Assembly (NCBI GenBank): GCA_035635475.1
Contig: DASQAZ010000113.1
Location: forward strand, 360 to 64,359
Source: Bacteroidota bacterium
GTDB lineage: Bacteria; Bacteroidota; Ignavibacteria; UBA10030; SZUA-254
DNA length: 64,000 nucleotides
Direction: 5' to 3'
Shown: positions 16,201 to 53,916 of the stretch, piece by piece
Numbering within the stretch: the first letter of the stretch is position 1
Layout: each line of letters opens with the position of its first letter
Program-made: the position numbers and the translations under genes
The notes under the pieces: model-generated
The model's input: the letters and a program-made list of their open reading frames with translations, nothing else
Databases searched by the model: none
Told to the model about the DNA's origin: nothing

Positions 16201-16207
16201 AAAAGTT

Positions 16208-26547: not shown

Positions 26548-27798
26548 TCATTCCTGCGGAGCGTGGACGAACCAGCGTTCGCTCGCGCTGAACGTGACCG
26601 AGAGGCGGAATATCCGGTCTTTTTCGAGATCGGCAGTCCCCCGGAAGCTATATTCCGCCGCGATGTGCATCCGCGTGTCGGCGAGAATCGGAATGCCGAA
26701 ACCGCCCGCGATGCCGGCCTCGTCGATGGGTTCACCCTTGATATTGTAGTAGGAGGCATCGTAGAAAAATCCCAGCCGGTATGAAAGCCGCTGGAAGAAT
26801 GGCGCCGAAGATTCCTTTTTCGGGACCAGTTCGGCGCCGAGACTGAACCGGTAGCTGTCGCGAAGGTCTGATACGCTCGAATCGTGAAGCGCAAACATCG
26901 ACCAGTTCTGGTAATAGAGGTCGCTCGCGAGCGTGTAACGGTCGGTTCCAAACGATATTCCTCCGCCGGCGGCGAAGGGGAGCCGGCTTTTCCCCTCGGG
27001 ATAGACGACGGTGTCGCGGGTCGTCAGTGAAGTGTTCGTGTACGCATAGTAACGCTCCTCGGCCGAGTTCATGGACGATATCGTCGAAAAAACAGCGCCG
27101 ACATTAAGAAATTGATCCGGTGGAAGATTCATCAGCTTTTTCATTCCGCCGTACATCACTCCGAATGTCGCGCCGATGCCATCGAGACGTGTGAGCCGCA
27201 CATCCTGCGCGTTTGTGTACGAGTTCGACGGGAATGTCTGGCTCACGGTGTTCCGGAGAGTCCCGAAGTAGTAATTCAGCTTGACGCCGATCATGAGATT
27301 ACTGTCGGGTGCGGCGGAGACGCCGAGATGCCCCTGCGAAATCCCGCCCTCGCCCTCATACCGGGCGGTGTAGTCGAAACCGTTTTGGGAGCCCGGAACG
27401 AGAATATTGTAATTGACTCTGCTGAAAGGAGTAATACCCGCCCCGAGGATGACTCCCCAGGAGGGGATAACAGGGACTGCTAACATCAAGCCGTTAAACT
27501 TCGCGCTGCTCAGATAGGTCGAGCTTGTCTGATCGGTTCCGGCGAAACCTTCGTACAATGCGCTGACGGAAAACTGCGTGCGGCTGATCACCGCCCAGGT
27601 CGCCGGGTTGAGCGGGTCAATCGTTCCGGAGGGAAGGAGCGCAATTCCCACACCGCCCATGCCCAGGCCGCGACCGAACGACCCGTATTGCAGGTCGCCG
27701 AGGCCGTGCCGTGAGTAGCCGGAGCCGCCGCTTCCGGCGAGTCCGGTTGATGACCCTACGATCAAGAAGAGAAACGCGATTCGCGTTGATCTGCGCAT
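26548..27798 (-). CDS. outer-membrane beta-barrel protein (FadL/PorV-like), function unknown
   Basis: Signal peptide, Gly-rich N-terminal region [13 protein letters not shown]...DPLNPA, and alternating beta-strand pattern throughout. Confidence 0.5.
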
Positions 27799-30506: not shown

Positions 30507-30664
30507 TAAGCGAAATTATTTTGTTCTATAATAGGGCGACTGCATAGAGTTTTTGTTAAAGGTTCTTGTTCCGGTTAAAATCTAGCTTGTGCCGGAATGA
30601 ATTCGGCCTATAAAGCCGGGTTCTGCTGATTCAAACGAGAAACCTTTGACAATCGATTGCGGGC

Positions 30665-30706
30665 AGACCGAATGTCAGGGTTACCTGTCATTCGGTCTTT
30701 TTATTT
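30665..30706 (+). terminator. intrinsic terminator-like hairpin plus T-tract, 21 nt upstream of the porU start
   Basis: AGACCGAATGTCAGG (30665-30679), loop GTTA, CCTGTCATTCGGTCT (30684-30698). This gives 14 bp with one T.T mismatch, followed by TTTTATTT. Confidence 0.6.
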
Positions 30707-30726
30707 CTATCCGGTCATGGACAACA

Positions 30727-33700
30727 TTGAAATTTTATCGGCGCAATATTGCTACGAAGCTGACAGGGATGGCGTTCATCCTGTCTTCAATATTTGTGAA
30801 TTCCGCTTTCTCTCAATCAGGCGACGTGAAGATTTTGCAGTCTGACCGGAACGGGATCACAATCCAGTATCTTCCCCAGCTCCGGCCTCCGTCGACAGTC
30901 ACCTCGGGCGCGGAGCAATTCGTACGTTACGATTTTGGAGGCGGCCGACTCAGAGCCCGGCAGCATTCGGGTTATCCCGAGCTGCCGGAAAGGGATGTAT
31001 GCCTCCGGTTGACCGCCAGTACGGGCAACACGGTTGAAGTTCTCTCCGCGGATTACGAAGACATTCGCGGCGTGACGCTCGCCCCGGTACCCGATGTCCA
31101 CCGGGACAATATGGATGGGATCCGCAGTTATCGGCTCGATCCGGCGGCGTACTCCATTGCGGAGTTTGTTCCGGCGGCCGTCGCTTCCATTGTGAATGCG
31201 GGTGAAACACGAGGGATCGTTCTCGGAGATCTCTCGATAAGTCCTCTTCAGTATAACGCGGCCAGTCGAACGCTGAGGCGCTTTTCCCGGATCGTGGTGC
31301 GGGTGAATTTTGCTCCATCCCGCGCTCAGGGACCCCCCGGCGACGCCCTCACCAAGGGTGTTGCCATTAATGATCAGGCCTTCACCGGGAGCGTTTCAAT
31401 CGCTGCCAGGCAGGCGGTGCTGGCGAACAGCGTCCTGAGTTCAGGGATCTGGTTCCGGTTTCCGATCCCGGCCGACGGAATGTACAAGCTGACAGGTCAG
31501 GTCCTGTTGGCCGCCGGGATACCATCCGGCGTTGATCCGCGAACGATCAGAATCTTCGGCAACGGCGGTTACGAGCTCCCAGGCGACCCTGCATCAGCTT
31601 CCATCGACGACCTTCTGGAAAGCGCCGTCTTTGTGAACGATGCCGGGACGATGGGGACGTTGGACCCTAACGATTATATCGTTTTTTACGGGAAGGGTAC
31701 ACGCGGCTGGAAATATAACCCCGCGAGCCGGACTTTCGGACACTATCTGAACCATTTCACCGAGACAGACTACTACTGGCTGACGTTCGGGAACGGACCC
31801 AGCAGGCCGATGGCTCTCGTGCCGTCACTGAATCAGCAGCCGGTTCCCGCCCCGTCTACCGTCCTCGGAAAGGTGTTCCGTGAGGATGACCGTGTCAACC
31901 TTCTGTCTTCGGGGCTGGAATGGCTCGGCCCTCCGTTGACCAACGGGGATGAGATGACCGACGTGCTGGGGACTCCGGGAGTGGACACATCACAGCTCGT
32001 TCAATACCGGTTCCACCTCGGCGCACAATCGAATTCGTTCTCGACATTTACAATCAGCGAGCATGGCGTCCAGCTCGGTTCTTCCGTGGGCATCAACAGA
32101 ACCGACGTTGGAAACGAGTTTGCCAGGCAATTGGTCGACGCCTTCGTCAATCGATCCCTGCTGCCTTCGTTTTCAGACGAACGGAGCCAGCTTCGCTTTT
32201 CGTATTCTACCTCGAGCTCGGGAGGGACGGGCTATGTCGACTGGTACGAGGTCTTCTACCAGCGGAAGCTGAAGGCGGTCAACGATTTGTTTAGTTTTCA
32301 TACACTGGATACGTCGGCGATCGTCGAGTACGATGTCACCGGTATGAGCGGCGGACCCGTGTCGGTATTTGACGTGACGAGATTCGACAGCGCCGCGGTG
32401 ATCTCAAACCCCCGGATATCGGCGGACACCTGCTCTTTTCAGATTCAGCTTGCCGCCGGTTCGGCGAAGGAATTGTATGTGGTCGGGCAGAACGGATACA
32501 TGACACCGGGACCCCTGACGAGAGTGGCGAACCAGAATCTTCACGGCGACCCGACCGAAGCCGACGAGGTAATCATCACCCATTCGGACTTCGCGCCCGC
32601 CGCTCAGCGCCTCAAGGCGTTCAGAGATCAGCAACCGGGCCGTCCCGTCAGGACGCTGGTTGCCGATGTCGATATGATTTATAACGAATTTGGCGGAGGC
32701 CTGCCGAGCCCGGCTGCGATCAGGAATTACTTGCGGTACCTTTACAATAACTGGTCGAAACCTCCTCTCTACGCTCTCCTTTTTGGCGACGGCGATTACG
32801 ATTACCGCCGCATCATCGCGACGGGTCCGAACTGGATTCCCGCGTGGGAAACTGCGGAATCGTACGATCCCCTCTATAGCTATGCGAGTGACGATGATTT
32901 TGTCATCCTCGGGAATACTTCGCGCGTTGGTCTGGGCGTCGGCCGCCTCACGGCGCGTTCGCCGGAGGAAGCAAATGTTATGGTGGATAAGATCATCGAG
33001 TATGAGTCGGGTCCGGTCGATGATCCCTGGAAGATCCGGGTGACCTTCGTAGCAGACGACGCGCTCGCGGGATCCCAGCCCAACGGCACGATCGAAAACG
33101 ACTATAGCATCCACGTCGCACACGCCGAGGCAGTCGCGCTCGAGGTTCCCGCGCTCTTTGAACTCAAGAAGATCTATGAGTTCGAGTTCCCGACCGTCTT
33201 CACGCCTGAAGGACGAAGAAAGCCGACCGTCAACGCGGCAATTGAGAATCAGGTAAACCAGGGTACGCTGATCCTCAACTATTCCGGCCACGGCAACCCG
33301 CACCTCTGGGCTCACGAGCATGTGCTCGTGAAGGAAACGGATTTTTCGCAGTTTCATAATAAGGGCAAATATTTCTTTCTCGTGGCGGCAACGTGCAACT
33401 TTTCCGCATTCGACCAGGTGAACGAACAGAGCGGGGGGGAGGTCCTTCAGGCGATGCCCGGTGCGGGCGCGATCGCAACACTCTCGGCCACGCGGCCCGT
33501 CTACGCCGCCCAGAACCGGGCTCTCAACGATACGCTTTTTCGGTACCTCTTTCAGCTCGGCCCCACCGGGCGCGTCCTGCCTCAGCGGCTTGGCGATGTC
33601 GTCTACCGCACGAAACAGCTACTCGTGAGCGACAATGACAGAAAGTATTTCCTGCTCGGAGATCCGGCGGTGAGCATCGCCTTTCCGAGACTCTTTGCAA

Positions 33701-34752
33701 CCGTCGACAGCATCAATCACCAGTCCCTGACTCTGCCCGTTCAGCTGCAGGCGCTCAGCCGTTCATCGGTATCTGCCACCGTCCGCGATACCGCTTCATC
33801 CGGGATCCTGAACGTCTCAGGGGCGGCGCAGATTGTCGTGAACGATGCGATCCGCACGGTTTCAATAAACGATCCGGATGCCGGACTCGTGACATGGCGA
33901 ACGGGAGGAAGCGTCCTGTTTCGCGGCGATCAGTCGGTTAACAGCGGATTGATCAGCTCCAGCTTTGTCGTGCCGAAGGATATTTCCTATGGTAACGATT
34001 TCGGCCGCATCACAATCTATTTCTGGAACGCCGCGACGGACGGGGTGGGCTACACGACAAATGTCCGCGTCGGCGGATCTGATTCAACGGCGGTTGCCGA
34101 TTCGGCGGGACCGGTCATGCAGCTCTATCTCGACAGCCGGGGATTTCGTCCAGGCGACGTCGTAAGTGCGTCTCCGACGCTCATTGCCGATCTATCAGAT
34201 GCGAGCGGCATCAATACGTCCGGGGCGGGGGTCGGCCATCGCCTTGAGGCATGGCTCGATGACCAGGCGCAGAGCGTCGATCTGAGCGATTACTACAGGA
34301 GCAAGCCGAATACGTATCAGGAGGGAACGGTCGACTATCAGTTCGGCACCCTCGCATCCGGGAGTCACAAGCTCAGGATGCGCGCGTGGGACACCTATAA
34401 TAACTCCTCGACGAAGGAGACGGTTTTTGACGTGCTGACCGGATCGGGCCTGAACGTCTCGAATGTATACAACTTCCCGAACCCCTTCGCGTCTTCCACG
34501 CTGTTCACGTTTCAGCAAAATCAGGTTGTCAGCATCGACTCCGAAATCAAGATCTACACGGTCGCCGGCCGCCTGGTCCAGTCGCTGAAAAAGGACAATA
34601 TCATCGCCCATTTTGTGGAGATTCCCTGGGACGGACGGGACAAAGAGGGGGACGCGCTGGCAAACGGAGTGTACCTGTACAAGTTGATTGCCCGCACGCA
34701 GGATGGCCGGTTTTCGAGCGAAGTTTTGGGAAAATTGAGCATTCTAAGATAA
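30727..34752 (+). CDS. porU: type IX secretion system sortase PorU (peptidase C25, gingipain family) with T9SS C-terminal domain
   Basis: C25 His/Cys regions LNYSGHGNPHLWAHE and FLVAATCNFSAFD. The CTD is NFPNPFASSTLFTF...IYTVAGRLV...WDGRDKEGDALANGVYLYKL. It is adjacent to porV. The TTG at 30727 gives signal peptide MKFYRRNIATKLTGMAFILSSIFVNSAFSQ, and the ATG at 30769 is the alternative. Confidence 0.85.
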   Translation: MKFYRRNIATKLTGMAFILSSIFVNSAFSQSGDVKILQSDRNGITIQYLPQLRPPSTVTSGAEQFVRYDFGGGRLRARQHSGYPELPERDVCLRLTASTGNTVEVLSADYEDIRGVTLAPVPDVHRDNMDGIRSYRLDPAAYSIAEFVPAAVASIVNAGETRGIVLGDLSISPLQYNAASRTLRRFSRIVVRVNFAPSRAQGPPGDALTKGVAINDQAFTGSVSIAARQAVLANSVLSSGIWFRFPIPADGMYKLTGQVLLAAGIPSGVDPRTIRIFGNGGYELPGDPASASIDDLLESAVFVNDAGTMGTLDPNDYIVFYGKGTRGWKYNPASRTFGHYLNHFTETDYYWLTFGNGPSRPMALVPSLNQQPVPAPSTVLGKVFREDDRVNLLSSGLEWLGPPLTNGDEMTDVLGTPGVDTSQLVQYRFHLGAQSNSFSTFTISEHGVQLGSSVGINRTDVGNEFARQLVDAFVNRSLLPSFSDERSQLRFSYSTSSSGGTGYVDWYEVFYQRKLKAVNDLFSFHTLDTSAIVEYDVTGMSGGPVSVFDVTRFDSAAVISNPRISADTCSFQIQLAAGSAKELYVVGQNGYMTPGPLTRVANQNLHGDPTEADEVIITHSDFAPAAQRLKAFRDQQPGRPVRTLVADVDMIYNEFGGGLPSPAAIRNYLRYLYNNWSKPPLYALLFGDGDYDYRRIIATGPNWIPAWETAESYDPLYSYASDDDFVILGNTSRVGLGVGRLTARSPEEANVMVDKIIEYESGPVDDPWKIRVTFVADDALAGSQPNGTIENDYSIHVAHAEAVALEVPALFELKKIYEFEFPTVFTPEGRRKPTVNAAIENQVNQGTLILNYSGHGNPHLWAHEHVLVKETDFSQFHNKGKYFFLVAATCNFSAFDQVNEQSGGEVLQAMPGAGAIATLSATRPVYAAQNRALNDTLFRYLFQLGPTGRVLPQRLGDVVYRTKQLLVSDNDRKYFLLGDPAVSIAFPRLFATVDSINHQSLTLPVQLQALSRSSVSATVRDTASSGILNVSGAAQIVVNDAIRTVSINDPDAGLVTWRTGGSVLFRGDQSVNSGLISSSFVVPKDISYGNDFGRITIYFWNAATDGVGYTTNVRVGGSDSTAVADSAGPVMQLYLDSRGFRPGDVVSASPTLIADLSDASGINTSGAGVGHRLEAWLDDQAQSVDLSDYYRSKPNTYQEGTVDYQFGTLASGSHKLRMRAWDTYNNSSTKETVFDVLTGSGLNVSNVYNFPNPFASSTLFTFQQNQVVSIDSEIKIYTVAGRLVQSLKKDNIIAHFVEIPWDGRDKEGDALANGVYLYKLIARTQDGRFSSEVLGKLSILR

Positions 34753-34874: not shown

Positions 34875-36011
34875 ATGATTTCAAATGGAATGAGGAGAAC
34901 TCTAATATGGGCAGCGGTTGTCGCCGTGTTCTGTCTACTCACGATGCCCCAGGCATCAGTAGCACAGGGAGAATCGGCGGTGCCGTTTTTGCTGCTCGCA
35001 CCAAACGCGCGGGCGGATGCGATGGGCGAAGCCGGCGGCGCGTTGTCGGATGATGCGGCTTCTGCGTTCTGGAACCCGGCCGGGCTGGCGTTCCTGCTCG
35101 GTCAGGAAGTCAGCATCACGCACTCCAATTTGCTGCCGCAGTTTCAGCAGAGCGATTTGTTCTACGATTACCTGGCCTACCGCAACCACATTGCCGATAT
35201 CGGCGGGACGATCTCCGCAACGCTGACGTATGAGAGCCTCGGCGAGTTTGTCGAAACTGACGCCAGCGGCCCGACGCCGATCAGCACGTTCAGGGCGTAC
35301 GAGTTTGGGATCACGGCCGGATATGCCACGAGGATCCTGAGCGACCTCGGAGTGGGATTGAATCTGCGGTACATCCGGAGCGTGCTCGCGCCGTTCAATG
35401 TGCAGGGGCAAGGGCGCCAGGGTATCGCCTCGACGATCAGCTTCGACGTTGCGACGCTCTGGAAGCCGGCCATGTTCGACAATCGGCTCGGCGTGGGTGT
35501 CAACCTGTCGAATCTCGGGCCAAAACTGACATACATCGATGAAGCCCAGGCTGACCCCCTTCCGACGAATCTGCGCCTTTCATTCGCCGGCCAGGTTTTC
35601 AAGAGCGAATACAATAATATCAATGTCGTGCTGGATTTCACGCGCATCCTCGTCCGGCGCCGGCCTGAGATTGTCGATTCTGCCACGCAGTTGGTGGTGC
35701 AGGAAGCTTCGGTTGATAAACTGCCAAAGGCATTGTTCAGTGCATGGGGCGACGGGGGGATAAAAAAGGTGGATATTGGGACCGGCCTGGAGTACTGGTA
35801 TGGAAGTCCCCGCCTGATCGCGATTCGGTTCGGCTACTTCTACGAGAACCCTAACTATGGAAACCGCAAGTTCCTGACCTACGGTGCCGGCGTCCGTTAT
35901 GACGTCTACGGCTTCGACTTCAGCTACCTGTCTGCGGTTGAAGAAAATCACCCGCTTGACGGGACACTTCGATTCAGCCTCCTGATCGCGTGGGGCGGGA
36001 ATAAGGAATAG
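34875..36011 (+). CDS. porV: type IX secretion system outer-membrane shuttle protein PorV (LptO)
   Basis: Signal peptide, then AVPFLLLAPNARADAMGEAGGALSDDAASAFWNPAGLAFL, and a beta-barrel pattern. It lies immediately downstream of porU, the canonical arrangement. Confidence 0.8.
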   Translation: MISNGMRRTLIWAAVVAVFCLLTMPQASVAQGESAVPFLLLAPNARADAMGEAGGALSDDAASAFWNPAGLAFLLGQEVSITHSNLLPQFQQSDLFYDYLAYRNHIADIGGTISATLTYESLGEFVETDASGPTPISTFRAYEFGITAGYATRILSDLGVGLNLRYIRSVLAPFNVQGQGRQGIASTISFDVATLWKPAMFDNRLGVGVNLSNLGPKLTYIDEAQADPLPTNLRLSFAGQVFKSEYNNINVVLDFTRILVRRRPEIVDSATQLVVQEASVDKLPKALFSAWGDGGIKKVDIGTGLEYWYGSPRLIAIRFGYFYENPNYGNRKFLTYGAGVRYDVYGFDFSYLSAVEENHPLDGTLRFSLLIAWGGNKE

Positions 36012-36024: not shown

Positions 36025-39000
36025 GTGAATTTTCGCACAATCGTTCTAGGCGCTTCCTCCATTCTCATTTCGGCTGCGCTCGGTGATGCGCAGACCCAAC
36101 GCCAGCCGGTCTTCAACCATCCTCTGACGACCTTTCGTGACCTGAGCGGGTCCCGGGGCGGCGGGATCTCCGCTCCCGCTGCGGGACCGGAGACGCTCCG
36201 GATTCTCACGGCAATGGTTGCATTCCAGGAGGACAGCGATCCCCGGACGACCGGCAGCGGCAGCTTCGACACCACGACGCCCACCAAGAATCTTCTCGAC
36301 CCGCCTCCGCATGACAGTGCCTATGTTCAAAATCATCTGGCATTCGCCGCGAATTACTTCCGGAAAGTCTCCGATGGCAGGTTAATCGTGACCGGAGAGG
36401 TCCTCGGGCCGGTGTACCGGCTTCCCTACCCGATGCAGCATTACAGTCCGACAAGGAGCAGCGCAAACAACGTCGAGATCGGTCTCCTCATGCGCGATTC
36501 CTGGCATCTGATCGACTCTGTTACGCCGGGCATATCATTCGGAAAGTATCAGGTTTTTCTTCTCGTTCACGCCGGCGCGGGGAGGGACATCGATCTCACC
36601 AGCATTTATGGCTTCGACCCGACGCCGTTCGACATACCGTCGATCTATCTGAATCTGGCGTCGCTGAAGAAAATGTTCGGCAATTCCTATGATGGCGTTC
36701 CGGTAGCCGGAGGAACCTTCCTCATCCCCAATTCGATCATTCTTCCTGAGACCGAGAGCCGCATTTTAGAATCTGCTGTGGGATCCTCTCTGCTGCAGCT
36801 CGGGATAAACGGTTTACTCGCCGCCAGCGTCGGGAGCCATCTCGGCCTCCCCGACCTTTTCGACACGAAGACCGGAGCTTCCGGAATCGGGCGCTTCGGC
36901 CTGATGGACGGCCAATCGATTTTCAGTTGGAGCGGTCTCTTTCCGCCCGAACCCTCCGCATGGGAGCGCGCTTTCCTGGGATGGCTGCAGCCGATCGCGG
37001 TCACCGGAGGCAACGCCGTCTATGCGCTTCCGGCCGTGACGCTGCCGCAAGACTCGGTCTACCGGGTTCTCATCTCCGCCAAGGAATATTTCCTTGTCGA
37101 GAACCGGAACCGCGACGCGAACCGCGACGGGGCGACTGTGACCATGGTACGAAACGGCCAGCCCGTCGTCCGGACATGGTCGCGCGATACCGTGGGTTTC
37201 AATGCCTTTAATCCCGACTCGTTGTATGGGGTCGTCACAGATGTTGACGAGTTCGACTGGAGCCTGCCGGGCGGCGTCAGCGCCCGCACGGGCGAGTTGT
37301 TCGACGGAGGCATCCTGATCTGGCATGTCGATGAGAATGTCATCGAAGCGAACTACGATGCCGATGCCGTGAACGGAGATCCTGACCGGCGGGGTGTCAA
37401 TCTCGAAGAGGCGGACGGGTCGCAGGATATCGGCCAGACCTATGGCCTGATCAGTCCGGGCGCCGGAAGCGAAAGCGGGACCGTCCTCGATTTTTGGTAT
37501 GCCGGGAACAAGGCCCCCTTGCGCCTGCAGTCGAATGAGTTCACGCCCACTTCCCATCCGAGCAGCCTGAGCAATGATCATGCGGAGAGCCACGTCTATA
37601 TCAGAGAGTTTTCCGCGCGCGCGCCGAGAATGACCGCAAGAATTCAGGTTGGGGATAATCAGGTGGAGCTGGTCCCGGGCTTTCCCAAGAATGTCGGCCG
37701 CATATTCGGGCGCAATTCGATTACTGCCGTGGACCTGTTTACCGGAGGCACCGGTGCAATTCTTGTCGCGACTTCAGGTCTGACTCCCAATAGCCTGCAG
37801 CCGGGACGGATCGTGCCCGGTTCGACTGCTCTACCGTACGTGTATGGCTGGAAATCGGATGGGGGCCCGATTGGTCAGTTTTTCTCGTCCGGGAGGATCG
37901 CGCAAGCCAGCGGACTCGGCACCTGCAACACCTTCACCGGAAAACCTGTCGCGGGCGATTTCAATCGAGACAATGTGCCCGACCTGGCCGTGACCGGCCT
38001 GTTTCGATTTATAAATGATCCAATCCCGGCTTCGATTGCCGTTGGCTGGAGGGCGCAGGATAATAATAATGACAGTCTCGCGGATCAGGCGTTCCTGGTT
38101 GCAGAAGCGCCGGGGCCCCAGATCACGACGTCGCTGGCCGCGGGTGATACAGATCTTGCGTTCGGCACCAGGAACAATGACATAGTGTTCCTGTCCGGCA
38201 GCGGGAATTTTGATTCTCTCCAGCAATTGAGTCCGGGGGACACATCTTCGATCGTGGGGGTGAGCCGATGGAGCCGGGGAGACACGGTTGTTGCCGTGTC
38301 GGCGAGCGGAACGGTGGGAATCGTCACTCCGCGCGGCGTTGTGATTAAAAGAAGTTTCGCTCATCCGATGAGTTCTCCGGCGGTCGCAGGAACGATTTCT
38401 TCCGGAATCGGCAGGCGGATCGTCTTCGCAACGACAGACGGATATGTCTATTCCGTTGATGGCAGCCTGAAGACAGCGGACAGATTCCCGGTTTCGACAG
38501 GAGGAGAGATTCTGAACGCCTGTGCGCTTGCCGATATCGACGGCGATGGCGTTAAAGATATCGTTGTCTTCAGCGGCAGAAAGGTTTTTGCTTATAATGC
38601 CGTCGGCTCCGTACTTGACAACTTTCCCATCATCGCGCCGTCCTCGAAAAGCCTTCTGACATCACCGATCATCGCGGATCTCAACGGCGACGGCCGGCCC
38701 GATATTGTGGGCGTTACGCAGGAGGGTCTGGTCTTCGCCTATGACCGGTCCGGAACAATGCTTCCCGGATTTCCGATCCTCGGAGGGGTTAATGCGGGCT
38801 CAACCCCCGCTGCTTTCTACATTCCGAGCGGCTGTCTGAGCTGCTCGGACATCGGTCTGGCTGTTGCTTCCGATGACGGGAACGTCTACGCGTGGAGGAC
38901 CGGTACGGTGGTGACAGGCCCGTCGTCGCCGCCGGAACAGCCCTGGCCGCAGTATCTACACGACGCCAGAAACAGCGGATTATCGGACACGCTTCTTTAC

Positions 39001-39312
39001 CAGCCGGCGCAGAACGGTGAATTCTTTCCCGCCTCCCGCGCCTATAACTGGCCGAACCCCGTGGATAAGGCGCACGGCTATAAAACCCACATTCGCTACT
39101 ATGTGAAAAACCCCGCGAACGTCCACATACGTATTTTTGATCTTGCGGGAGACCAGGTCACCGAATTCGACGGGCCCGGGGCGGGAGGGCTGGATAATGA
39201 GGTCGACTGGAGTGTTGACAACATCCAGAGCGGGATTTATTTTGCGCGCATCGAGGCCGTAGGATCAGGCGGCGGCGGTTCCGCCGTCATTAAAATTGCA
39301 GTCGTGAAATGA
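36025..39312 (+). CDS. T9SS cargo-type protein: M6 (InhA)-like domain with degenerate zinc motif, FG-GAP repeats and T9SS C-terminal sorting domain
   Basis: GTG start with signal peptide. The M6-like segment is LLVHAGAGRD ... AASVGSHLGLPDLFDT (where M6 has HExxH.LGLPD). FG-GAP-like repeats are DFNRDNVPDLAV, DIDGDGVKDIVV and DLNGDGRPDIVG. The CTD is YNWPNPV...IRIFDLAGDQV...IQSGIYFARIEA. Confidence 0.7.
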   Translation: MNFRTIVLGASSILISAALGDAQTQRQPVFNHPLTTFRDLSGSRGGGISAPAAGPETLRILTAMVAFQEDSDPRTTGSGSFDTTTPTKNLLDPPPHDSAYVQNHLAFAANYFRKVSDGRLIVTGEVLGPVYRLPYPMQHYSPTRSSANNVEIGLLMRDSWHLIDSVTPGISFGKYQVFLLVHAGAGRDIDLTSIYGFDPTPFDIPSIYLNLASLKKMFGNSYDGVPVAGGTFLIPNSIILPETESRILESAVGSSLLQLGINGLLAASVGSHLGLPDLFDTKTGASGIGRFGLMDGQSIFSWSGLFPPEPSAWERAFLGWLQPIAVTGGNAVYALPAVTLPQDSVYRVLISAKEYFLVENRNRDANRDGATVTMVRNGQPVVRTWSRDTVGFNAFNPDSLYGVVTDVDEFDWSLPGGVSARTGELFDGGILIWHVDENVIEANYDADAVNGDPDRRGVNLEEADGSQDIGQTYGLISPGAGSESGTVLDFWYAGNKAPLRLQSNEFTPTSHPSSLSNDHAESHVYIREFSARAPRMTARIQVGDNQVELVPGFPKNVGRIFGRNSITAVDLFTGGTGAILVATSGLTPNSLQPGRIVPGSTALPYVYGWKSDGGPIGQFFSSGRIAQASGLGTCNTFTGKPVAGDFNRDNVPDLAVTGLFRFINDPIPASIAVGWRAQDNNNDSLADQAFLVAEAPGPQITTSLAAGDTDLAFGTRNNDIVFLSGSGNFDSLQQLSPGDTSSIVGVSRWSRGDTVVAVSASGTVGIVTPRGVVIKRSFAHPMSSPAVAGTISSGIGRRIVFATTDGYVYSVDGSLKTADRFPVSTGGEILNACALADIDGDGVKDIVVFSGRKVFAYNAVGSVLDNFPIIAPSSKSLLTSPIIADLNGDGRPDIVGVTQEGLVFAYDRSGTMLPGFPILGGVNAGSTPAAFYIPSGCLSCSDIGLAVASDDGNVYAWRTGTVVTGPSSPPEQPWPQYLHDARNSGLSDTLLYQPAQNGEFFPASRAYNWPNPVDKAHGYKTHIRYYVKNPANVHIRIFDLAGDQVTEFDGPGAGGLDNEVDWSVDNIQSGIYFARIEAVGSGGGGSAVIKIAVVK

Positions 39313-39319: not shown

Positions 39320-39976
39320 GTGCGACGAGCACTCTTGATAGGTTTGTGCGCTCTCCTTTTCTCCTGTCGCGACATTCAGCCCTTTCAGACGACTTCATCG
39401 ATCCAGGGATATCAACTGGACGGCACGGTGACATCCCCGAACGGGATTCCCCTTGACAGCGTCATCGTGCGGCTGTACTATAATTACGATGTCGTGAGCG
39501 ATACCCCCGTCGATACCCAGCAAGTCATCGTAACCGACCCCAACAAGATCGTGGATGTGGCGGTGTATACGCCGGGCTACGTGTTTGTTCGGCAGCTCTT
39601 TTTGAACTACCTTCCGAGGGGACCGGTCCCGCATTTTCTTTGGGACGGGCGTGACCTGCACGGCGCAATCGCTCCCAGCGGCGAGTATCTCGTCCGGTAT
39701 GCCATCGACTCCGTGATCGTCAAGTATTCGATCGTCGTCATTGACGCGCAGGCCTCGGCGACAACCGACCCCCTGGGACATTTTATCCTGACAGGCGACC
39801 GGCTGCCCGTCGGGACGGTATTCGATTCGTACACCACAGACAACGTTTACAATAGAACTCTTCAGGTTCGATCGGACCTCGAACTCATACTCATCAGGCT
39901 GACGCTCCGGGCCGACTACCCGTCTGTTCAATTGAAGAAGGATCAACGTACGACCGCAGGATTCACCCTCGGATGA
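39320..39976 (+). CDS. hypothetical lipoprotein with FlgD-Ig/CarboxypepD_reg-like features
   Basis: GTG start with lipobox LLFSCRD. GTVTSPNGIPLDSVIVRLYY and FLWDGRDLHGAIAPSGEYLVRY resemble Ig-like fold modules. Its stop overlaps the next start (ATGA). Confidence 0.5.
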   Translation: MRRALLIGLCALLFSCRDIQPFQTTSSIQGYQLDGTVTSPNGIPLDSVIVRLYYNYDVVSDTPVDTQQVIVTDPNKIVDVAVYTPGYVFVRQLFLNYLPRGPVPHFLWDGRDLHGAIAPSGEYLVRYAIDSVIVKYSIVVIDAQASATTDPLGHFILTGDRLPVGTVFDSYTTDNVYNRTLQVRSDLELILIRLTLRADYPSVQLKKDQRTTAGFTLG

Positions 39977-42900
39977 ATGGACCGGGATTTCGTCTTTTAT
40001 TATTGATGCTGATTGTCGTCACCGCAGGCGCCGCCCAGGATGAATTTTATCATCCCGAGCTGACGTGGCGGACCATCGAGACGGAGCATTTCTACGTGCA
40101 CTATCATGCCGGCACCGAGCGAACCGCCCGCGTCGTCGCGAAGGTCGCGGAGGATATTTACGCGCCGGTGACGGCGCTGTACCATCACCAGCCCGACGGG
40201 AAGGTCAGTTTCGTTATCAAAGACTATGACGATTTCTCGAACGGGGCGGCATATTTTTTCGACAACAAGGTCGAGATCTGGGCATCGTCCCTCGATTTCG
40301 ACCTCCGCGGGACGCACAACTGGCTGCGCAACGTGGTCACCCATGAATTCACTCACATCGTTCAGATTCAAACCTCCCTGAAATTCGGGAGAAAGTTTCC
40401 GGCTTTTTATCTTCAGTGGCTTCAGTATGAATCGGAGCGGAGACCGGACGTATTGTACGGCTATCCCAACGGGATCGTTTCTTATCCCATCTCCGGTTTT
40501 TCCGTGCCAAGCTGGTTCGCCGAGGGGGTCGCGCAGTACAACCGCCGGGAACTCGGCTACGACTCCTGGGACGCCCACCGCGACATGATCCTAAGGATGT
40601 ATGCTCTTGACAACAATTTATTAAGCTGGAACGAAATGGCGGTCTTCGGCAAGACGAGCCTCGGGAACGAATCGTCGTATAATGCCGGGTTCGCTTTCGT
40701 CCGCTATATCGGGGAGCGCTACGGCGACGACAAGCTTGAAATCATTTCCCGGAATCTTTCTTCTTTGACCCGAATGACGATCGACGGCGCTATCGAGGCG
40801 GCAATCGGCAAGAGCGGCGGCGATCTATACAACGAGTGGAAGGAATCCCTCCGGACGGATTACGCGTCCCGCACCGCGGAAATCAAAAACTCTCTTGTCC
40901 AGGGGGAAACAATCGCCGACGTGGGATTCGGAAATTTCTATCCTTCGTTCTCGCCCGACGGCAAGAAGCTCGCGTACGTGTCGAACAAGGGTGCGGATTA
41001 TTTTTCGCTCTCATCGCTGTATCTTTATGATCTTTCCGCGAAGACGGAACGGCTTCTTCAATCCGGGATCCGTTCCAGTTTCTCATGGTCTCCGGACGGC
41101 GGCAAGATCTATTATTCAAAGATCAGCAGGCACAACGATCACTGGTCGGACCTCGCCGATCTCTATGTGTTCGATGTCGAGAAGGGCGAGGAAACCCGTC
41201 TGACCAGAGCACTGCGCGCGAGCTCCCCGGCGGTTTCGCCGGACGGAAAGAGGATCGCCTGCGTTGCGGGGAGCGACGGGACGTTGAACCTTTACACGAT
41301 GAAAATTGACGGATCGGATGTACGAAAGATTACTGAATTTGCACAGGGCGAGCAGGTGTACAATCCAAAATGGTCGCCGGATGGCGCCCAGATTTTGTTT
41401 GACTACTCGTTGAAGGATGGACGGGATCTTGCCCTCGTGTCTGCCGATGGCGGGCCGGTGACATTTCTCCTCGCCACGCCCGAGGATGAACGGAACGCTG
41501 TTTTTACGGCCGACGGATCGAAGGTTATCTTTGCGTGCGACAAGACGGGCATTTTCAATATCTATGAATATGACCTCAAATCAAAGGCCGCCGTTCAACT
41601 GACGAATGTGCTCGGCGGCGCCTTCATGCCGGCGGTGGGCCGGTCGGGCGAGCTGGCGTATGCGACCTACACGTCGAGCGGTTACAAAATCGCCCTGATG
41701 AAGGAAGCCCGACCGCTCCCGGCTCCGGCCGTCTACAAGCGGGCTGAACGGACTGACGTTGCGATGATCTCCCCCGGGCTCGCATCCGACGGCTCGGAGA
41801 AGGACCGGTTCGACTGGAAGTCGCTGCGTTCGTACGACGACAGCAAGATTCCCGCCTATTCCGATACGACCTACAGGAACATCGCTTCCGATATCGCCTT
41901 CGTTCCATTTCTCCGCGTCGATAATTACAATCCCAAGAACAAGGGCATCGACATCCTGAAGCTGGGCGTGTATGCCTATTCCTACGATGTCCTGGACCGG
42001 TACGGTTTCTTCGCGGGCGGCGCCTTCAATAAGAAGGGTGAGCGCGACCTGTTTTTTAACTTCGATTACCGGGGAAAGATCCCCGGGCTTTTCCAGCTTG
42101 GGTTCGAGCCGGCGCTGTCGCTGGAAGCGTATAACATCACCCGCACGACCGACTCTAGAATCACGCTTCCCTTGGACACGATCGGGGTGGATGTTTCTTA
42201 TAATCTTCTCGAGTTCGACGTCGCGCTCAAGCAAAAAATCTTCAGCGAGGCATTGGAGATGGAGCTGCGGTACGCTCACAGCCGTTACACGGCGTCGGTC
42301 GGTGTGTTCATTCTGCCCGATGTCGCTCCCCCCAACAACCTCGTCCAGGCGTTCAGCGAGCTGTACCTGATCGGGAACGACATTTCAATGACGCTGAATC
42401 TTGAAAATATCTATCCTTCGCGGACGCAGGAGATCAATCCGGTGGGGCGGAAAATCCGGCTGAGGTATGACTATGAATTTAATAAGTTCAATCCGTCGAG
42501 CGAGTATGATTTTTCGAGCGGAATTCCGGTGCCGAAATACCGGCATATCAACTTCCACCGGCTCGATATCGGGTGGCGGGAATCGCAAAAGCTTCCCGGC
42601 TGGAACCACACGCTGAGCGCACACCTCCGGGGCGGGTCAATCCTCAACTGGCCGGTTGATGACTTTTTCGATTTTTATATCGGCGGCCTCGCGGGAATGA
42701 AAGGGTATCCCTTCTATTCACTCGGCGGAAATCAGTTTGCCTACGCAAACCTGACCTACCGCTTCCCGGTCTTACAGCATATCGACCTGCGCCTCCTGCA
42801 GATGTATTTCGATAAACTCTACGCGGCGTTGTACGGGGATGTGGGTGAAGCCTGGACCGGGGGAAGGTTGCAGGATCAGAGGTTTAAGAAAGACGCGGGA

Positions 42901-43077
42901 GTCGAGCTCCGTCTTGAGGCGTTTTCGTACTATGCATTCCCGACGCGGATCTTCTTTAATGCAACCTATGGATTCGACCAATTCAACCGCTATTTCAGCA
43001 ACTCCGGATCGACCGTCACGTACGGGAAGGAATGGAACTTTCACTTCGGCGTTCTGTTCGGATTCGACCTGGACTAA
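39973..43077 (+). CDS. fusion protein: HExxH (MA-clan-like) peptidase domain + TolB-type PD40 beta-propeller repeats + C-terminal Omp85/surface-antigen (D15) beta-barrel
   Basis: Signal peptide and VVTHEFTHIVQ. There are five PD40-like repeats (FSPDGKKLAYVS, WSPDGGKIYYS, VSPDGKRIACVAG, WSPDGAQILFD, FTADGSKVIFACD). The C-terminus FYIGGLAGMKGYPFYSLGGNQFAYANLTYRFPV...GVELRLEAF...FHFGVLFGF is typical of Omp85 barrels. Confidence 0.7.
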   Translation: MNGPGFRLLLLMLIVVTAGAAQDEFYHPELTWRTIETEHFYVHYHAGTERTARVVAKVAEDIYAPVTALYHHQPDGKVSFVIKDYDDFSNGAAYFFDNKVEIWASSLDFDLRGTHNWLRNVVTHEFTHIVQIQTSLKFGRKFPAFYLQWLQYESERRPDVLYGYPNGIVSYPISGFSVPSWFAEGVAQYNRRELGYDSWDAHRDMILRMYALDNNLLSWNEMAVFGKTSLGNESSYNAGFAFVRYIGERYGDDKLEIISRNLSSLTRMTIDGAIEAAIGKSGGDLYNEWKESLRTDYASRTAEIKNSLVQGETIADVGFGNFYPSFSPDGKKLAYVSNKGADYFSLSSLYLYDLSAKTERLLQSGIRSSFSWSPDGGKIYYSKISRHNDHWSDLADLYVFDVEKGEETRLTRALRASSPAVSPDGKRIACVAGSDGTLNLYTMKIDGSDVRKITEFAQGEQVYNPKWSPDGAQILFDYSLKDGRDLALVSADGGPVTFLLATPEDERNAVFTADGSKVIFACDKTGIFNIYEYDLKSKAAVQLTNVLGGAFMPAVGRSGELAYATYTSSGYKIALMKEARPLPAPAVYKRAERTDVAMISPGLASDGSEKDRFDWKSLRSYDDSKIPAYSDTTYRNIASDIAFVPFLRVDNYNPKNKGIDILKLGVYAYSYDVLDRYGFFAGGAFNKKGERDLFFNFDYRGKIPGLFQLGFEPALSLEAYNITRTTDSRITLPLDTIGVDVSYNLLEFDVALKQKIFSEALEMELRYAHSRYTASVGVFILPDVAPPNNLVQAFSELYLIGNDISMTLNLENIYPSRTQEINPVGRKIRLRYDYEFNKFNPSSEYDFSSGIPVPKYRHINFHRLDIGWRESQKLPGWNHTLSAHLRGGSILNWPVDDFFDFYIGGLAGMKGYPFYSLGGNQFAYANLTYRFPVLQHIDLRLLQMYFDKLYAALYGDVGEAWTGGRLQDQRFKKDAGVELRLEAFSYYAFPTRIFFNATYGFDQFNRYFSNSGSTVTYGKEWNFHFGVLFGFDLD

Positions 43078-43093: not shown

Positions 43094-44077
43094 ATGATGA
43101 GCCATCGAGCAGGAGGGACCCGGGGAGGCTTGACGCTGTCGGTCTTGCTTCTCTCGTCCGGTCTCTGGAGTATAACCGCCCTCGCCGGCGAAAAGCCCGC
43201 GATTTCTTTGACTGGTCACGCGAGCACCGATTTTTTCGGTACCGCGCTCGCGATACACTGCGATCAATGGTCTCCCACGCATCCGTCGCCGATGTTCGAC
43301 CAGGAGACTCCTCCGGACGAAGAGAAGTCGCCGTGGCTTGCCGGCACCCTTTCCCTTGCGGTTCCCGGCACCGGGGAGTTTTACTCGAACAGCTACCTCA
43401 AAGCGGGAATGTTCGTGGCGTTTGAAGCGGCGTCGTGGATCGTCGCCTATACGTATAATAAGAAGGGCGACCGGCAAACCGGGGATTTTCAAACCTTTGC
43501 GAACGAACACTACAGCGCGTGGCGGTATGCGAAATGGACGCTCGACAATGTCGGCGGTCTCACGAATGGGGCGCACAGCTCAGCCGACTACGATCCGCTT
43601 CGGGACGGGCCGGACGCCCCCTGCAACGCGCCATTCGCCTGCGTCAATTGGGTAGAACTCAACAGAATGGAGCGGGATATCTCGAGTGTCTTAAGCCCCC
43701 CGACCGGATACACGCATCAAATGCCGTACTTCGGCGAACAGCAGTACTATGAATTGATCGGAAAGTACGATCAGTTTAGCCGGGGATGGGATGACGCCGA
43801 TCTGGGGCCCTACACCCAGCAGCCGACAGGCATCAAGAGCAACTCAAAATTATTTTACCAATACTCCGCGATGCGCGCCAAGGCGAACAGCTATTACGAT
43901 GTCGCCAGCACCTGGGTGAGCGTGGTTGTGGTCAACCACATTGTCAGCGCTCTCGACGCTTTCTGGTCCGCGACCCGGTTTAATAAGTCGCTGCACGCAG
44001 ACGTGAAAATGAGAGTTCAGCCCACGCCGTTCGGCGTTGTCCCCGTCACCGAAGCGAGGATCGAGTACACGTTTTGA
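43094..44077 (+). CDS. hypothetical secreted/membrane protein
   Basis: AAGGA lies upstream of the ATG at 43094, which is followed by a signal peptide (LTLSVLLLSSGLWSITALAG). The track ORF from 42839 overlaps the preceding gene. No family recognised. Confidence 0.45.
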   Translation: MMSHRAGGTRGGLTLSVLLLSSGLWSITALAGEKPAISLTGHASTDFFGTALAIHCDQWSPTHPSPMFDQETPPDEEKSPWLAGTLSLAVPGTGEFYSNSYLKAGMFVAFEAASWIVAYTYNKKGDRQTGDFQTFANEHYSAWRYAKWTLDNVGGLTNGAHSSADYDPLRDGPDAPCNAPFACVNWVELNRMERDISSVLSPPTGYTHQMPYFGEQQYYELIGKYDQFSRGWDDADLGPYTQQPTGIKSNSKLFYQYSAMRAKANSYYDVASTWVSVVVVNHIVSALDAFWSATRFNKSLHADVKMRVQPTPFGVVPVTEARIEYTF

Positions 44078-46627: not shown

Positions 46628-46895
46628 AATGAAATATAGCGTCAGAAGAGGCGATTTCCAAGCCCCTTTGCTGCCGCCGAGTGACCGGAGATAAGCTCAC
46701 CGAAAGGGTACTTGCTTATGAAGACGCATTTGGCTACCTTTTTCAAGCACTCAATGGAGCGAAAGGAGCCGTTTAGTATCGAATCTTGGTGACTGTTTAA
46801 TTGTGCCCACGGGTTTTCCCGTGTAACGTCACAATTTTGTAGACAACAGGACGATAATACTAAGTTTGGCCGACATTCGCTCACCCCTGCGCGGG

Positions 46896-49800
46896 ATGAT
46901 CCCGCCTCCCTATACCCGCGCTCATACCCGTGTAATCCTCCTTGCGTTGGCGCTCAATGCCGTCGCTTTGTTATTGCCGACGCCCGCCGGGGCGCAGGTC
47001 CCGCCGGCGGTTGCCGACTCGCTGCGCCTCGACAGTCTGCAGAGAGGCCTCATCTTTCCATTCCCCGGCATCAACGATACGACCAATGTGCGCCTGCGCG
47101 GAAGGGGCCGTGACTCGCTTCACGCGGGGCGCGACTCTCTGGGATTCCTCCGCGACTCACTCCGCGGCCGCGGCGAATCGGGCGTGAAGATCGATACGGC
47201 CTGGGTCCCGTATCTCGATTCGACGTCGCGATTGCAGCAGTTTATACACCGGCGATCCGATATGCCGATGGTGGAACTATTTCCGCGCGAGAATTACAGC
47301 CTTTACCTGGACGTGCGTTCGGCCGCATACAACCGGCGATTCGAACTCGATTCCGCCGGCCGCTCGGTCACCGTGCGGGAACAGGTCAACGGCAAGGACG
47401 TAAAAATCCCGGTGTCGGTGCCGCTGGAAGATTATATCGGGCTCCGATCCCGCGAGGAAAAGAGACGATCGTGGCGTGAGCTCGTGACACGGTACCAGTA
47501 CAAAGAGACCCAGGACCAGCTCGGAGGATTTCTCTCTTCGCTCACGAATATCGAAATACCCGTTCCTGCAAACCCGATCCTCAGCATCTTCGGCGGCCGG
47601 GGAATAAAACTCAATGTTTCGGGCGCAGTGGATATCCGGGGGGCGTTCCGCAACCAGTCGTCGGATCAGGTGACGCTCTCGCGCCAGGATCAATCGCGAA
47701 GCGAGCCGGATTTCAACCAGACCGTTCAGGTGAACGTCAACGGGACGATCGGAGACAAGCTGAATATCCTCGCCGACTGGAACACACAGCGCACATTCGA
47801 GTACGAGAACCAGCTCAAGATCAAGTACACGGGATACGAGGACGAAGTCGTTCAGAGCGTGGAGGCGGGCAATGTCTCCCTCCAGACTCCTTCGCTCGTC
47901 GGGGGCGGGCAGGCGCTCTTCGGCATCAAGGCGAGAATGCAGGCAGGACCCCTGACGCTCACCACGCTTGTCTCGCAGAAGAAGGGGCAGACGAAGGAGC
48001 TCACGCTCACCGGCGGAGCCCAATCGAGCGAGTTCCCCGTTCTTCCGACGTCGTACGCAAAGAACTACTACTTTGTCGATACACTGTATCGAAAATTCTA
48101 CGCGAATCTTCACAGCTCACCCGCACCGACGATCGGCCCCGACGTGACGGAGAATCAAATCCTGCAGATTGACGTCTGGCAGAGTCTCCTCAATAATACT
48201 CCGAGCGCCACCGGAACGTACGTCACGGCCTCTGCGTATGTCAATCTGCCCGGGCACCCGAGCGATGTTTCGTATGCCCCCGATTTTGTCGCCACCTTTG
48301 ATACCACCTCGCCCGGCAACTATAAGAGAGGGTACTGGACGAGACTCGATCCGACGAAGGACTACCGCTATGACAAGTCCGCGGGCACGGTTACGCTTCT
48401 TACAAGCGTCGTCGATGCGCAGGCGATTGCGGTGAATTACACCATCGTCGGCGCGGGCGGAAGAAATCAAGTCTACGGCGACAGCGTCGGACATAATTTG
48501 TATCTCAAGCTCATCAAACCGGAAAACATTCAGGACCATCCGGGTTATAAGCCGGCGTGGGACCTCATGTTGAAAAATATCTATCCGCTCGGGGGGAGGG
48601 ACCTGAAAGAGGAGGGCTTTAAGTTCAAGGTTCTGCGGCACAGAGACGGCACGACGGACGATTTTCAGATTTACGGTACGAACCTCCTGGCGGTGCTCGG
48701 ACTCGACCGATTTGATGCGGCGAAAACCCCAAAGGCCGGCGGTGACGGTGAGTTCGATTTTATTAAAGGCGTGACCGTCGACGTGGAACGGGCCGAGATC
48801 ATTTTTCCCTCGCTGCGTCCGTTCGATTCGACCATCGTCCAGTATTTCAGGGGCATCGGAAAGGCGATTTCCGATTCCCTTCTCTTTAGCGATATCTATG
48901 ATACGACGGCGACAGCGGCACAATACAACGCGGTGAAAAACCGCTACTTCATGCAAGTTACGTCATCGACATCCCAATCGAGCCGATATCAGCTTGGGTT
49001 TAACCTCGTGGAGGGAAGCGTTCAGGTGCTCTGGAACGGCACGCCCCTGCTGCCGACCGTCGACTACACGGTGGATTACATCGTGGGGGAGGTCATTATT
49101 CGCAAGCCCGAAGCACTCCTTCCGGGTGCGAGCGTTCAGGTGAAGTACGAGCAAAACGATCTGTTTCAGCTTGCGTCCAAAACGCTGATCGGAGCTCGCG
49201 GCGAGATGGTAAACCTGTTTCCCAATACCAACATTGGTTTTACGGTCATGAGCCTCTCCCAGGCCACGCTGAGCGATAAAGTGCGATTGGGCGAGGAACC
49301 CACCAGTAATATGATCATGGGGTTCGATGCTTCGACATCATTCAACCTGCCGTTTCTGACGCAGGCAATTGACGCGCTTCCGTTCATCCGCACCCGGGAA
49401 ATGTCGAGCATCAGATTCGGCGGTGAAGCAGCGTACGTCCTTCCCAATCCAAATACGAAGACCAGCACCATCACCGATGATAACGGTGCGAGCATCGCCT
49501 ACCTCGATGATTTTGAAGGAGCCAGGAGGACGATCCCTCTGCCGATCAGCTACTCAGCCTGGCATCTGGCCAGCGCGCCTGCGTATAGCTTGTTGGGAGC
49601 AGGCCTGACGAACGAAAAAAAGACATATGCCAAGGGAAGGCTGGTTTGGTACAACCGGCTGCCAAGTGACGTGGTCTCCCAGGAGATCTGGCCGCACCGG
49701 GAAGTGCGGACAGGCGAAAACCTCGTGACGGTATTGAATCTTGACTATGATCCCCGTCATCGGGGGATGTACAATTTTTCGCCGAAACTCGATTCCACGC

Positions 49801-53877: not shown

Positions 53878-53916
53878 TATCCGTTGATTCTCTTTCCCGA
53901 ATTACTTACTATTAGA

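Follow-up and report, generated by a model that had tools for sequence, protein, structure and literature searches.

The 64,000-nucleotide window analysed here, a stretch of contig DASQAZ010000113.1 from a Bacteroidota bacterium of the class Ignavibacteria (assembly GCA_035635475.1), contains a gene on the forward strand (39973..43077) whose product combines an N-terminal zincin-type peptidase domain, a TolB-like beta-propeller and a C-terminal Omp85-type beta-barrel, the architecture of the WD40-like subfamily of Omp85 proteins. The gene stands in a cluster with genes of the type IX secretion system (T9SS), including those for PorU, PorV and an inactivated M6-like metalloprotease (M6i). The three-part architecture is known and common, and the linkage to T9SS genes is, as far as we found, new here. 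The protein is read here as an outer-membrane-anchored, periplasm-facing, propeller-gated zinc peptidase that works with the PorU/PorV/M6i sorting module of the T9SS, and we put the probability of this reading at about 0.5. Synteny, Omp85 hallmarks, domain layout and a conserved active site are shown; the protein's periplasmic location, its proteolytic activity and its role in type IX secretion are all predicted, and proposals about its substrates are speculative.

Gene and domain architecture

The open reading frame (ORF), taken from a six-frame ORF list, begins with ATG and encodes 1034 amino acids (aa); the ATG overlaps the TGA stop codon of the preceding 218-aa ORF at the junction CTCGGATGAATGG. 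A search for homologues in a collection of 5.8 billion proteins gave more than 6600 matches, and the best 120 of these are almost all about 1020 to 1060 aa long, with 57-99% identity and 98-100% query coverage. The ORF is one real gene, not a fusion or frameshift artefact, because more than 100 orthologues of equal length cover 98-100% of the query. When 1.84 billion cluster representatives were searched exhaustively with HMMER, 1701 clusters (50% identity) were obtained at E<=1e-30. Some of these may match through the propeller alone, and about 100 of the 1701 have full-length representatives with 30-57% identity to the protein. A scan of GTDB species representatives found relatives encoded in at least 584 species, with a soil Ignavibacteria metagenome-assembled genome (L003, VBOC01000018.1; 92% identity) as the closest genome record.

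The layout of the protein was established from Pfam matches, homologues, Foldseek searches and an AlphaFold2 model built from a 76-sequence alignment (mean predicted local distance difference test score, pLDDT, 82; predicted template modelling score 0.78). A putative Sec-type signal peptide, MNGPGFRLLLLMLIVVTAGAA (39973..40035), which has no lipobox cysteine and whose cleavage site was placed by reading of the sequence, is followed by an alpha/beta peptidase domain of the gluzincin type, clan MA (aa ~26-305, 40048..40887; aa ~30-305 in the model), by a six-bladed propeller of the TolB/PD40 type (aa 312-576, 40906..41700), by a largely disordered linker (aa 577-641, 41701..41895), and by a predicted 16-stranded Omp85-type barrel (aa 642-1031, 41896..43065).

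The peptidase domain matches Peptidase_MA_2 (PF13485) with 35.8 bits against a gathering score of 32.4. It contains the zinc-binding and catalytic motif HEFTH (aa 124-128, 40342..40356; H124, E125 and H128) and the segment WFAEGVAQY (40513..40539), in which E184, within the pattern WFAEGxAQY, is likely to be the third zinc ligand by analogy with gluzincins. Conservation was assessed in an alignment of 60 diverse relatives with 26-57% identity, in which the invariant columns are W32, R112, W117, H124, E125, H128, W181, E184, G185, Q188, D200, R208, E233, Y236, G239 and G665; 15 of these 16 lie in the peptidase domain, and only G665 lies in the barrel. E184 as third ligand leads to the classification as gluzincin, and in its sequence features the domain belongs to clan MA(E) and to Peptidase_MA_2, with a putative ligand role for E184. 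The conservation of the active-site residues makes the domain look active.

Because propeller matches dominated the Foldseek search with the whole model, residues 1-311 were modelled separately (pLDDT 77). This model weakly matches catalytic domains of families M1, M61 and M9, with E values of 5e-5 to 3e-3, the named matches being IRAP, ERAP1/2, LTA4H, tricorn-interacting factor F3, an M61 aminopeptidase and collagenase ColH. Membership of M1 itself was rejected: there is no GxMEN motif (the equivalent segment reads NGAAYFFDN, without a conserved Glu), and the HExxH motif and the presumed ligand Glu are separated by 55 residues, not 18, with an inserted beta-hairpin. In the model the domain appears to resemble M1 in fold only, and weakly.

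The propeller was recognised by PD40 repeats (72.5 bits, Pfam), and six blades were counted from DSSP strands of the model. TolB structures are the top Foldseek matches of the whole model in the PDB (E 2e-15), and the NCBIfam model of TolB, TIGR02800, scores 145.9 bits against a cut-off of 343.15, with the propeller part alone aligned. The protein thus resembles TolB in its six-bladed PD40 propeller, but the N-terminal domain of TolB is missing. It was rejected as the TolB of a Tol-Pal system on account of this partial match below the cut-off and of the absence of tol or pal genes nearby; the names "biopolymer transporter Tol" and "TolB" given to such proteins in databases are wrong. A propeller next to a peptidase is also the organisation of propeller-gated peptidases, as reflected in Foldseek matches to tricorn (1k32), an S9 peptidase (8wt1) and factor F3 (1z1w), although S9 peptidases and tricorn are soluble serine peptidases that are not anchored in a membrane.

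The linker has pLDDT below 50 at aa 593-611, and the only elements modelled in it are one helix of five residues and one strand of three. No match to the POTRA family PF07244 was found in the protein by Pfam, NCBIfam likewise yielded neither a POTRA nor an Omp85 match, and no POTRA fold is present at aa 577-641 of the model.

For the C-terminal region, AlphaFold2 predicts 16 long strands (aa 642-1029) with pLDDT mostly 80-95, and Foldseek matches the barrels of BamA from Deinococcus radiodurans (8xnb_A, E 6.9e-9, TMt 0.63) and Bacteroides thetaiotaomicron (9hiv_A, E 4.6e-9). The Omp85 family PF01103 was found in 14 of 48 homologous C-terminal domains (best E 1.8e-8), and full-length orthologues exceed its gathering score of 24 bits (P0118, 33.5; P0128, 32.6; P0250, 37.1; P0497, 26.5). 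The orthologues that pass include ones at 57-60% identity as well as more distant ones, and their alignments cover the region of the profile that holds loop L6 and strands 12-14; PF01103-type Omp85 membership of the protein follows by orthology. The L6 motif GGLAGMKGYPFY (42682..42717), recognised from the alignments and the model as the equivalent of (V/I/L)RG(F/Y) in Omp85 proteins, sits in the loop from predicted strand 11 to strand 12 and reads MKGY here (aa 909-912) and LRGY in distant relatives. Most of the 60 relatives carry the pattern [LMIV][RK]GY at L6, the second position being R or K in 52 of them and the last being Y in 57, and Y912 is kept in 76/76 close relatives. Strand 13 bears LYGDVGEAW (42829..42855), which matches the Omp85 motif FxDxG; within it, YGDVG occupies aa 954-958, with G958 kept in 55/60 relatives and F or Y at 954 in 51/60. 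The barrel ends in a conserved LFGF, whose aromatic residue is the terminus of many distant members. Together, PF01103 in the homologues, the AlphaFold2 model, the Foldseek matches and the motifs identify the C-terminal region as a predicted Omp85 barrel.

Long loops follow the odd-numbered strands of the model (L4, aa 776-794; L5, 839-857; L6, 891-921; L8, 1000-1021), and the turns after even-numbered strands are mostly short. With L6 between strands 11 and 12, this arrangement would place the N-terminus of strand 1 in the periplasm, according to canonical Omp85 parity, and the peptidase and propeller would be expected there also.

Two placements within known Omp85 types were considered and rejected. 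The protein is not of the BamA/TamA/TpsB type, for want of a PF07244 match and with a 65-aa linker that is mostly disordered, nor is it a type Vd protein of the PlpD family, since neither a patatin nor a POTRA match was found by Pfam. A sequence-only reading had already proposed a single 1034-aa ORF overlapping (ATGA) an upstream lipoprotein gene and encoding a zincin motif, at least five PD40 repeats and a 16-stranded Omp85 barrel without POTRA domains, and all of this is borne out by the orthologues, scores, blade count and models above. Of the Pfam matches that it had anticipated, those to PD40 and a clan MA peptidase were obtained, and that to PF01103 was obtained only in relatives of the protein.

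The same reading had regarded the architecture as unusual and such fusions as rare, which their presence in hundreds of species and in a published subfamily contradicts. The Omp85/TpsB superfamily has been divided into 10 subfamilies, of which one, named "WD40-like", was likened to a fusion of BamA and BamB (Heinz & Lithgow 2014, Front Microbiol 5:370, PMC4104836); three subfamilies with enzyme or propeller domains other than POTRA were catalogued in that work. In Table S3 of PMC4104836, "best WD40 hit" and "best aminopeptidase hit" each have a column of their own, and the Phyre2 matches of the members are to the BamA/TamA barrel (4k3b/4c00), to TolB (2w8b/2ivz) and, for most members, to an aminopeptidase or collagenase (1z5h, 4kxd, 4ar1, 3qnf). 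Judged by accession prefix, the members come from Ignavibacterium album, Melioribacter roseus, Rhodothermus marinus, Salinibacter, Caldithrix and Chloroherpeton, as well as from several Bacteroidota, Myxococcota and Vibrio/Photobacterium (PMC4104836). Ignavibacterium and Melioribacter also occur here, among the loci at 50% identity (L069, L071). The present protein is a member of the WD40-like subfamily by comparison of its architecture, rather than its sequence, with Table S3: barrel, TolB-like propeller, aminopeptidase- or collagenase-like N-terminus and lack of POTRA domains are the same. The text of PMC4104836 discusses neither the peptidase domain nor conservation of its active site nor linkage to T9SS genes. 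The metalloprotease, WD40-like and patatin-like Omp85 subfamilies were described in 2024 as "not well characterized" (Hanson et al., PMC11116518). Full-text literature searches found no functional study of the class and no report of a T9SS link, only the catalogue entry of 2014 and the one-line mention of 2024.

The only studied fusion of an enzyme with an Omp85 barrel is PlpD, whose enzyme domain was shown experimentally to be periplasmic (PMC11116518). PlpD resembles the present protein in having an Omp85 barrel with an N-terminal enzyme domain, the barrel serving as anchor or scaffold (PMC11116518), but its enzyme is a patatin lipase and it forms homodimers, whereas here a zincin and a propeller are found. 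PlpD also has one POTRA domain, so that it is a poor parallel, though cited by the sequence-only reading, for a protein without POTRA.

Conserved linkage to type IX secretion genes

The cluster in the window begins with the gene for PorU, the T9SS sortase (30646..34752, + strand; NF033707, 926.7 bits), and continues on the same strand with those for PorV, the outer-membrane shuttle of the T9SS (34875..36011; NF033709, 285 bits, and PF19572), and M6i, a T9SS-dependent M6-like inactivated metalloprotease (36025..39312; NF052323, 838.7 bits). Next come a putative lipoprotein of 218 aa with the lipobox LLFSC (39320..39976, from the ORF list and reading of the sequence), the WD40-like Omp85 gene, and a gene for a DUF5683-like protein (43094..44077; PF18935, E 5e-5, below the gathering score), which starts at the methionines of MMSHRAGG. 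The intergenic gaps from PorV to the Omp85 gene are 13, 7 and -4 nucleotides, and the gap from the latter to the DUF5683-like gene is 16-19 nucleotides with a start at 43094 or 43097. None of the T9SS models of NCBIfam matches the Omp85 protein itself.

FG-GAP repeats and a T9SS C-terminal sorting domain are present in M6i, which has no HExxH motif and reads AASVGSHLGLPD (AASVGSH) where M6 peptidases have HEFGH. M6i also weakly matches the C-terminal part of the PorZ model in NCBIfam and may be a PorZ-like partner; no papers about M6i were found. A signal peptide and hydrophobic helices were recognised in the DUF5683-like protein, whose C-terminus ends in IEYTF, and a literature search on DUF5683 found nothing relevant.

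Conservation of the gene order was examined by tblastn with the neighbours in the window against 82 homologous loci, all of the Ignavibacteria type; neighbours were counted where their order and strand agreed with the window, and most absences fall at contig ends. M6i is the most constant neighbour, upstream in 79/82 loci, and the DUF5683-like gene is downstream in 72/82. PorV is syntenic in 66/82 loci and PorU in 62/82. The small lipoprotein gene is placed outside the core of the cluster because it is present in only 27/82.

Ten more distant relatives were sampled beyond the loci of the Ignavibacteria type, and the core gene order recurs in nine of them; in 9/10 of the distant loci a protein of the size of M6i is encoded upstream, in most cases with a T9SS sorting domain, FG-GAP repeats or both. 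In Zixibacteria, PorU, two PorV and an M6/FG-GAP protein with a C-terminal sorting domain (CTD) precede a 310-aa protein, the WD40-like Omp85 protein and DUF5683, and in Rhodothermales the order is PorU, PorV, a 1029-aa protein, the Omp85 protein, AhpC and DUF5683. A genome of 5.4 Mb has PorU, PorV, an FG-GAP protein and a 409-aa protein before the Omp85 protein, with a 349-aa protein and DUF5683 after it, and a relative at 35% identity has PorU, PorV, a CTD protein and the Omp85 protein. In KSB1 the sequence is PorV, an FG-GAP/CTD protein, the Omp85 protein and DUF5683; in Marinimicrobia it is PorV, an FG-GAP/CTD protein, the Omp85 protein, a 255-aa protein and a YfiO-like protein; and in another relative (L087) it is PorV, a CTD protein, the Omp85 protein, a 322-aa protein and a YfiO-like protein. 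A further locus consists of a 950-aa protein, the Omp85 protein and DUF5683, and in Latescibacteria, where an FG-GAP/CTD protein and a 125-aa protein precede the Omp85 protein, the M6i-like protein is the only one of the T9SS core present. The remaining relative, P0263 (L088, 8001-11183), is a paralogue with the peptidase and propeller and a divergent barrel, and it has no T9SS neighbours.

The constant core is thus an M6i-like protein and the WD40-like Omp85 protein, usually with PorU and PorV before them and a DUF5683-like gene after them. The order with M6i persists as identity falls from 92% to about 35%, in six or more named phyla or classes and amid entirely different flanking genes, which speaks for selection on the linkage. 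The genomic association of the Omp85 protein with the T9SS is strong.

Downstream of the core, the window contains the genes for LptG and LptF (44109-46627, - strand), the T9SS translocon SprA/Sov (46866..53840, + strand; TIGR04189, 1078.7 bits) and PorX (53884-55506, + strand), LptG, LptF and PorX being identified by domain scans. The T9SS/Lpt neighbourhood described by the sequence-only reading was confirmed by these scans. Genes of the T9SS are unusually dense in the approximately 25 kb from 30646 to 55506 (PorU, PorV, M6i, SprA and PorX), and the LptF/LptG pair is inserted within this stretch on the opposite strand. SprA is present in 22/82 loci and adjoins only within loci of the Ignavibacteria type. 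The LptF/LptG adjacency was rejected as a functional clue and is regarded as incidental: it is confined to loci of the Ignavibacteria type (LptG in 37/82, LptF in 35/82), involves genes on the opposite strand and is missing from the other phyla.

Proposed function and competing explanations

After export by the Sec pathway, the C-terminal barrel would insert into the outer membrane and would hold the propeller and the gluzincin metallopeptidase on the periplasmic side by way of the flexible linker of about 65 residues. The propeller would probably limit access to the active site to unfolded or extended polypeptides, by analogy with the S9 family and tricorn. The protein would take part in type IX secretion from the periplasmic side of the outer membrane, and its most likely activity would be the trimming or clearing of polypeptides related to the T9SS, for instance cargo that has stalled or been mis-sorted, or components of the PorV/M6i module. 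The T9SS role is deduced from co-inheritance with PorU, PorV, a dead M6-like cargo protein and a DUF5683-like protein across the Fibrobacteres-Chlorobi-Bacteroidetes (FCB) superphylum. More tentatively, and with somewhat less than even chances, the whole orthogroup in Ignavibacteria, Rhodothermales, KSB1, Marinimicrobia, Zixibacteria, Latescibacteria and related FCB lineages may be an unrecognised conserved component of T9SS cargo sorting or attachment, in which the Omp85 fold has been repurposed as the anchor of a periplasmic propeller-gated zinc peptidase needed for the T9SS, the module being PorU-PorV-M6i-X-DUF5683 with the present protein as X.

Known T9SS proteins were compared for possible equivalents. 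PorE (PG1058) is likewise a periplasmic protein anchored to the outer membrane with a TolB/WD40-like propeller (PMC5053529), but it is a lipoprotein with TPR, CRD and OmpA_C domains, has neither peptidase nor barrel, and showed no detectable sequence relationship here. PorF/PG0534 was rejected as an equivalent, being modelled as a barrel of the TonB-dependent-receptor type.

From the three subfamilies of the 2014 catalogue with enzyme or propeller domains, PlpD is the only protein to have been studied afterwards, with results that overturned the mechanism assumed until then. Members of the WD40-like subfamily are widespread across the FCB superphylum, and the linkage of this subfamily in several phyla to porU, porV and an M6-like cargo gene is its first concrete, testable functional context; together with the invariant active site, this linkage turns an orphan Omp85 subfamily into a testable candidate for a T9SS-associated protease. 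The T9SS outside the well-studied Bacteroidia may have extra conserved parts, for which the WD40-like Omp85 protein, M6i and the DUF5683-like protein are suggested. If the proposed function is correct, models of the T9SS would gain a component, and a second example of an Omp85 barrel anchoring a periplasmic enzyme would be at hand.

Several points weigh against this proposal. PF01103 has no match in the protein itself at E<=0.1, a profile of the C-terminal domain found nothing among PDB sequences at E<=10, and the orientation of the modelled barrel is deduced solely from strand parity. Structurally, the peptidase domain is matched only weakly (TMq ~0.35, best E 5e-5), a profile of the N-terminal domain had no match among PDB sequences, and the 55-residue spacing from HExxH to Glu is atypical, with a presumptive third ligand. 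The cell surface is where PorU, M6i and PorV-bound cargo act, and a direct substrate link to a peptidase predicted to be periplasmic is therefore not obvious. No experimental datum for any member of the WD40-like subfamily was found in the literature. To these are added the members of the subfamily outside the T9SS context, which are considered below.

The main rival explanation, which we consider unlikely, is that the protein is an assembly or quality-control factor: a BamA/TamA-like insertase for T9SS components (PorV, SprA or the anchor of M6i), with the propeller as a BamB-like scaffold and the zincin degrading stalled clients as BepA does. The sequence-only reading had named a substrate-capturing insertase variant as one possibility. 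The barrel shares with BamA and TamA its 16 strands, the L6 motif (V/I/L)RG(F/Y) and the strand-13 motif FxDxG, both functionally important in BamA, and matches BamA barrels in Foldseek at E ~5e-9; Heinz & Lithgow read the class as BamA-BamB-like; and the synteny with T9SS outer-membrane genes also fits. BepA and other M48 zinc proteases act at BAM, the machinery that assembles beta-barrels (PMC13067283), and BepA, a periplasmic HExxH protease at an Omp85 machine with a part in quality control of outer-membrane proteins, would be the functional analogue, although it is of family M48 rather than M1/MA_2-like, has a TPR domain in place of a propeller and is a soluble protein of its own, not fused to the barrel. 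In two lineages a YfiO/BamD-like TPR gene follows the Omp85 gene and one small gene (L083, 13764-14552, Marinimicrobia; L087, 14241-15008), which hints at a link to outer-membrane protein assembly. Against an insertase stand the lack of POTRA domains for binding of clients or partners, the concentration of invariant columns in the peptidase domain (15/16, against one in the barrel), the precedent of PlpD, in which the Omp85 scaffold is an anchor without insertase activity, and the fact that nothing here indicates opening of a lateral gate. The protein further differs from BamA and TamA in that it is below the PF01103 threshold and coexists with normal BAM components. The window encodes a homologue of BamG (26548-27798, - strand; NF053685, 258.6 bits against a cut-off of 250), a FadL-like outer-membrane subunit of the BAM complex of the Bacteroidota type (PMC12611786), and this points to a BAM of the FCB type in the organism.

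That the protein is instead a housekeeping or nutritional periplasmic peptidase tethered to the outer membrane, whose adjacency to porU and porV reflects operon history, is also unlikely, and we regard it as a weaker candidate than the assembly factor. To our knowledge, Vibrio and Myxococcota are bacteria without a T9SS. Both have members of the WD40-like subfamily (Table S3, PMC4104836), and the paralogue P0263, divergent in its C-terminal region, is unlinked to T9SS genes, so that the subfamily holds both T9SS-linked and unlinked clades; an ancestral function specific to the T9SS is thereby ruled out, and a T9SS role would be the specialisation of one clade. The pairing of propeller and peptidase is, moreover, typical of oligopeptide-degrading enzymes, as the Foldseek matches to S9 peptidases, tricorn and F3 recall. 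Operon history accounts poorly, however, for an M6i order that survives such sequence divergence across phyla and classes amid wholly changed flanks, since conservation so deep is normally held by function.

Display of the peptidase and propeller on the cell surface, exported through the protein's own barrel as a passenger of the type Vd kind and working beside PorU and M6i, is improbable. The surface location of PorU, M6i and PorV-bound cargo would suit it, as would the long disordered linker, and the sequence-only reading had suggested a surface-tethered protease. Omp85 strand parity, with L6 between strands 11 and 12, instead points to a periplasmic N-terminus; the conserved L6/FxDxG lock suggests a lumen occluded as in BamA and TamA; about 570 folded passenger residues would have to cross with neither POTRA domain nor energy source; and PlpD, the paradigm of type Vd, keeps its enzyme domain in the periplasm (PMC11116518). 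Finally, the idea that separate peptidase, TolB-like and Omp85 genes were fused by an error of assembly or annotation has next to no chance of being right, as the homologue found in two ORFs of 320 and 719 aa (L002, 9005-12160) reflects a frameshift in a long-read metagenome assembly, with the protein continuing in another frame, rather than a natural gene split, and the more than 100 orthologues of equal length and full coverage come independently from JGI, ENA, NCBI and Logan.

Other features of the window

Apart from the cluster, the window encodes a 638-aa protein with OMP_b-brl_2 and OmpA domains (59478-61394, + strand) and a 720-aa S9 peptidase with a PD40/DPP-IV propeller of its own (12354-14516, - strand). 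The region from 14000 to 18300 has a GC content of 0.45-0.49, compared to about 0.57 elsewhere in the window, and contains a tRNA gene (16208-16281, + strand) and four ORFs without Pfam matches; it may be a small island inserted beside the tRNA gene.

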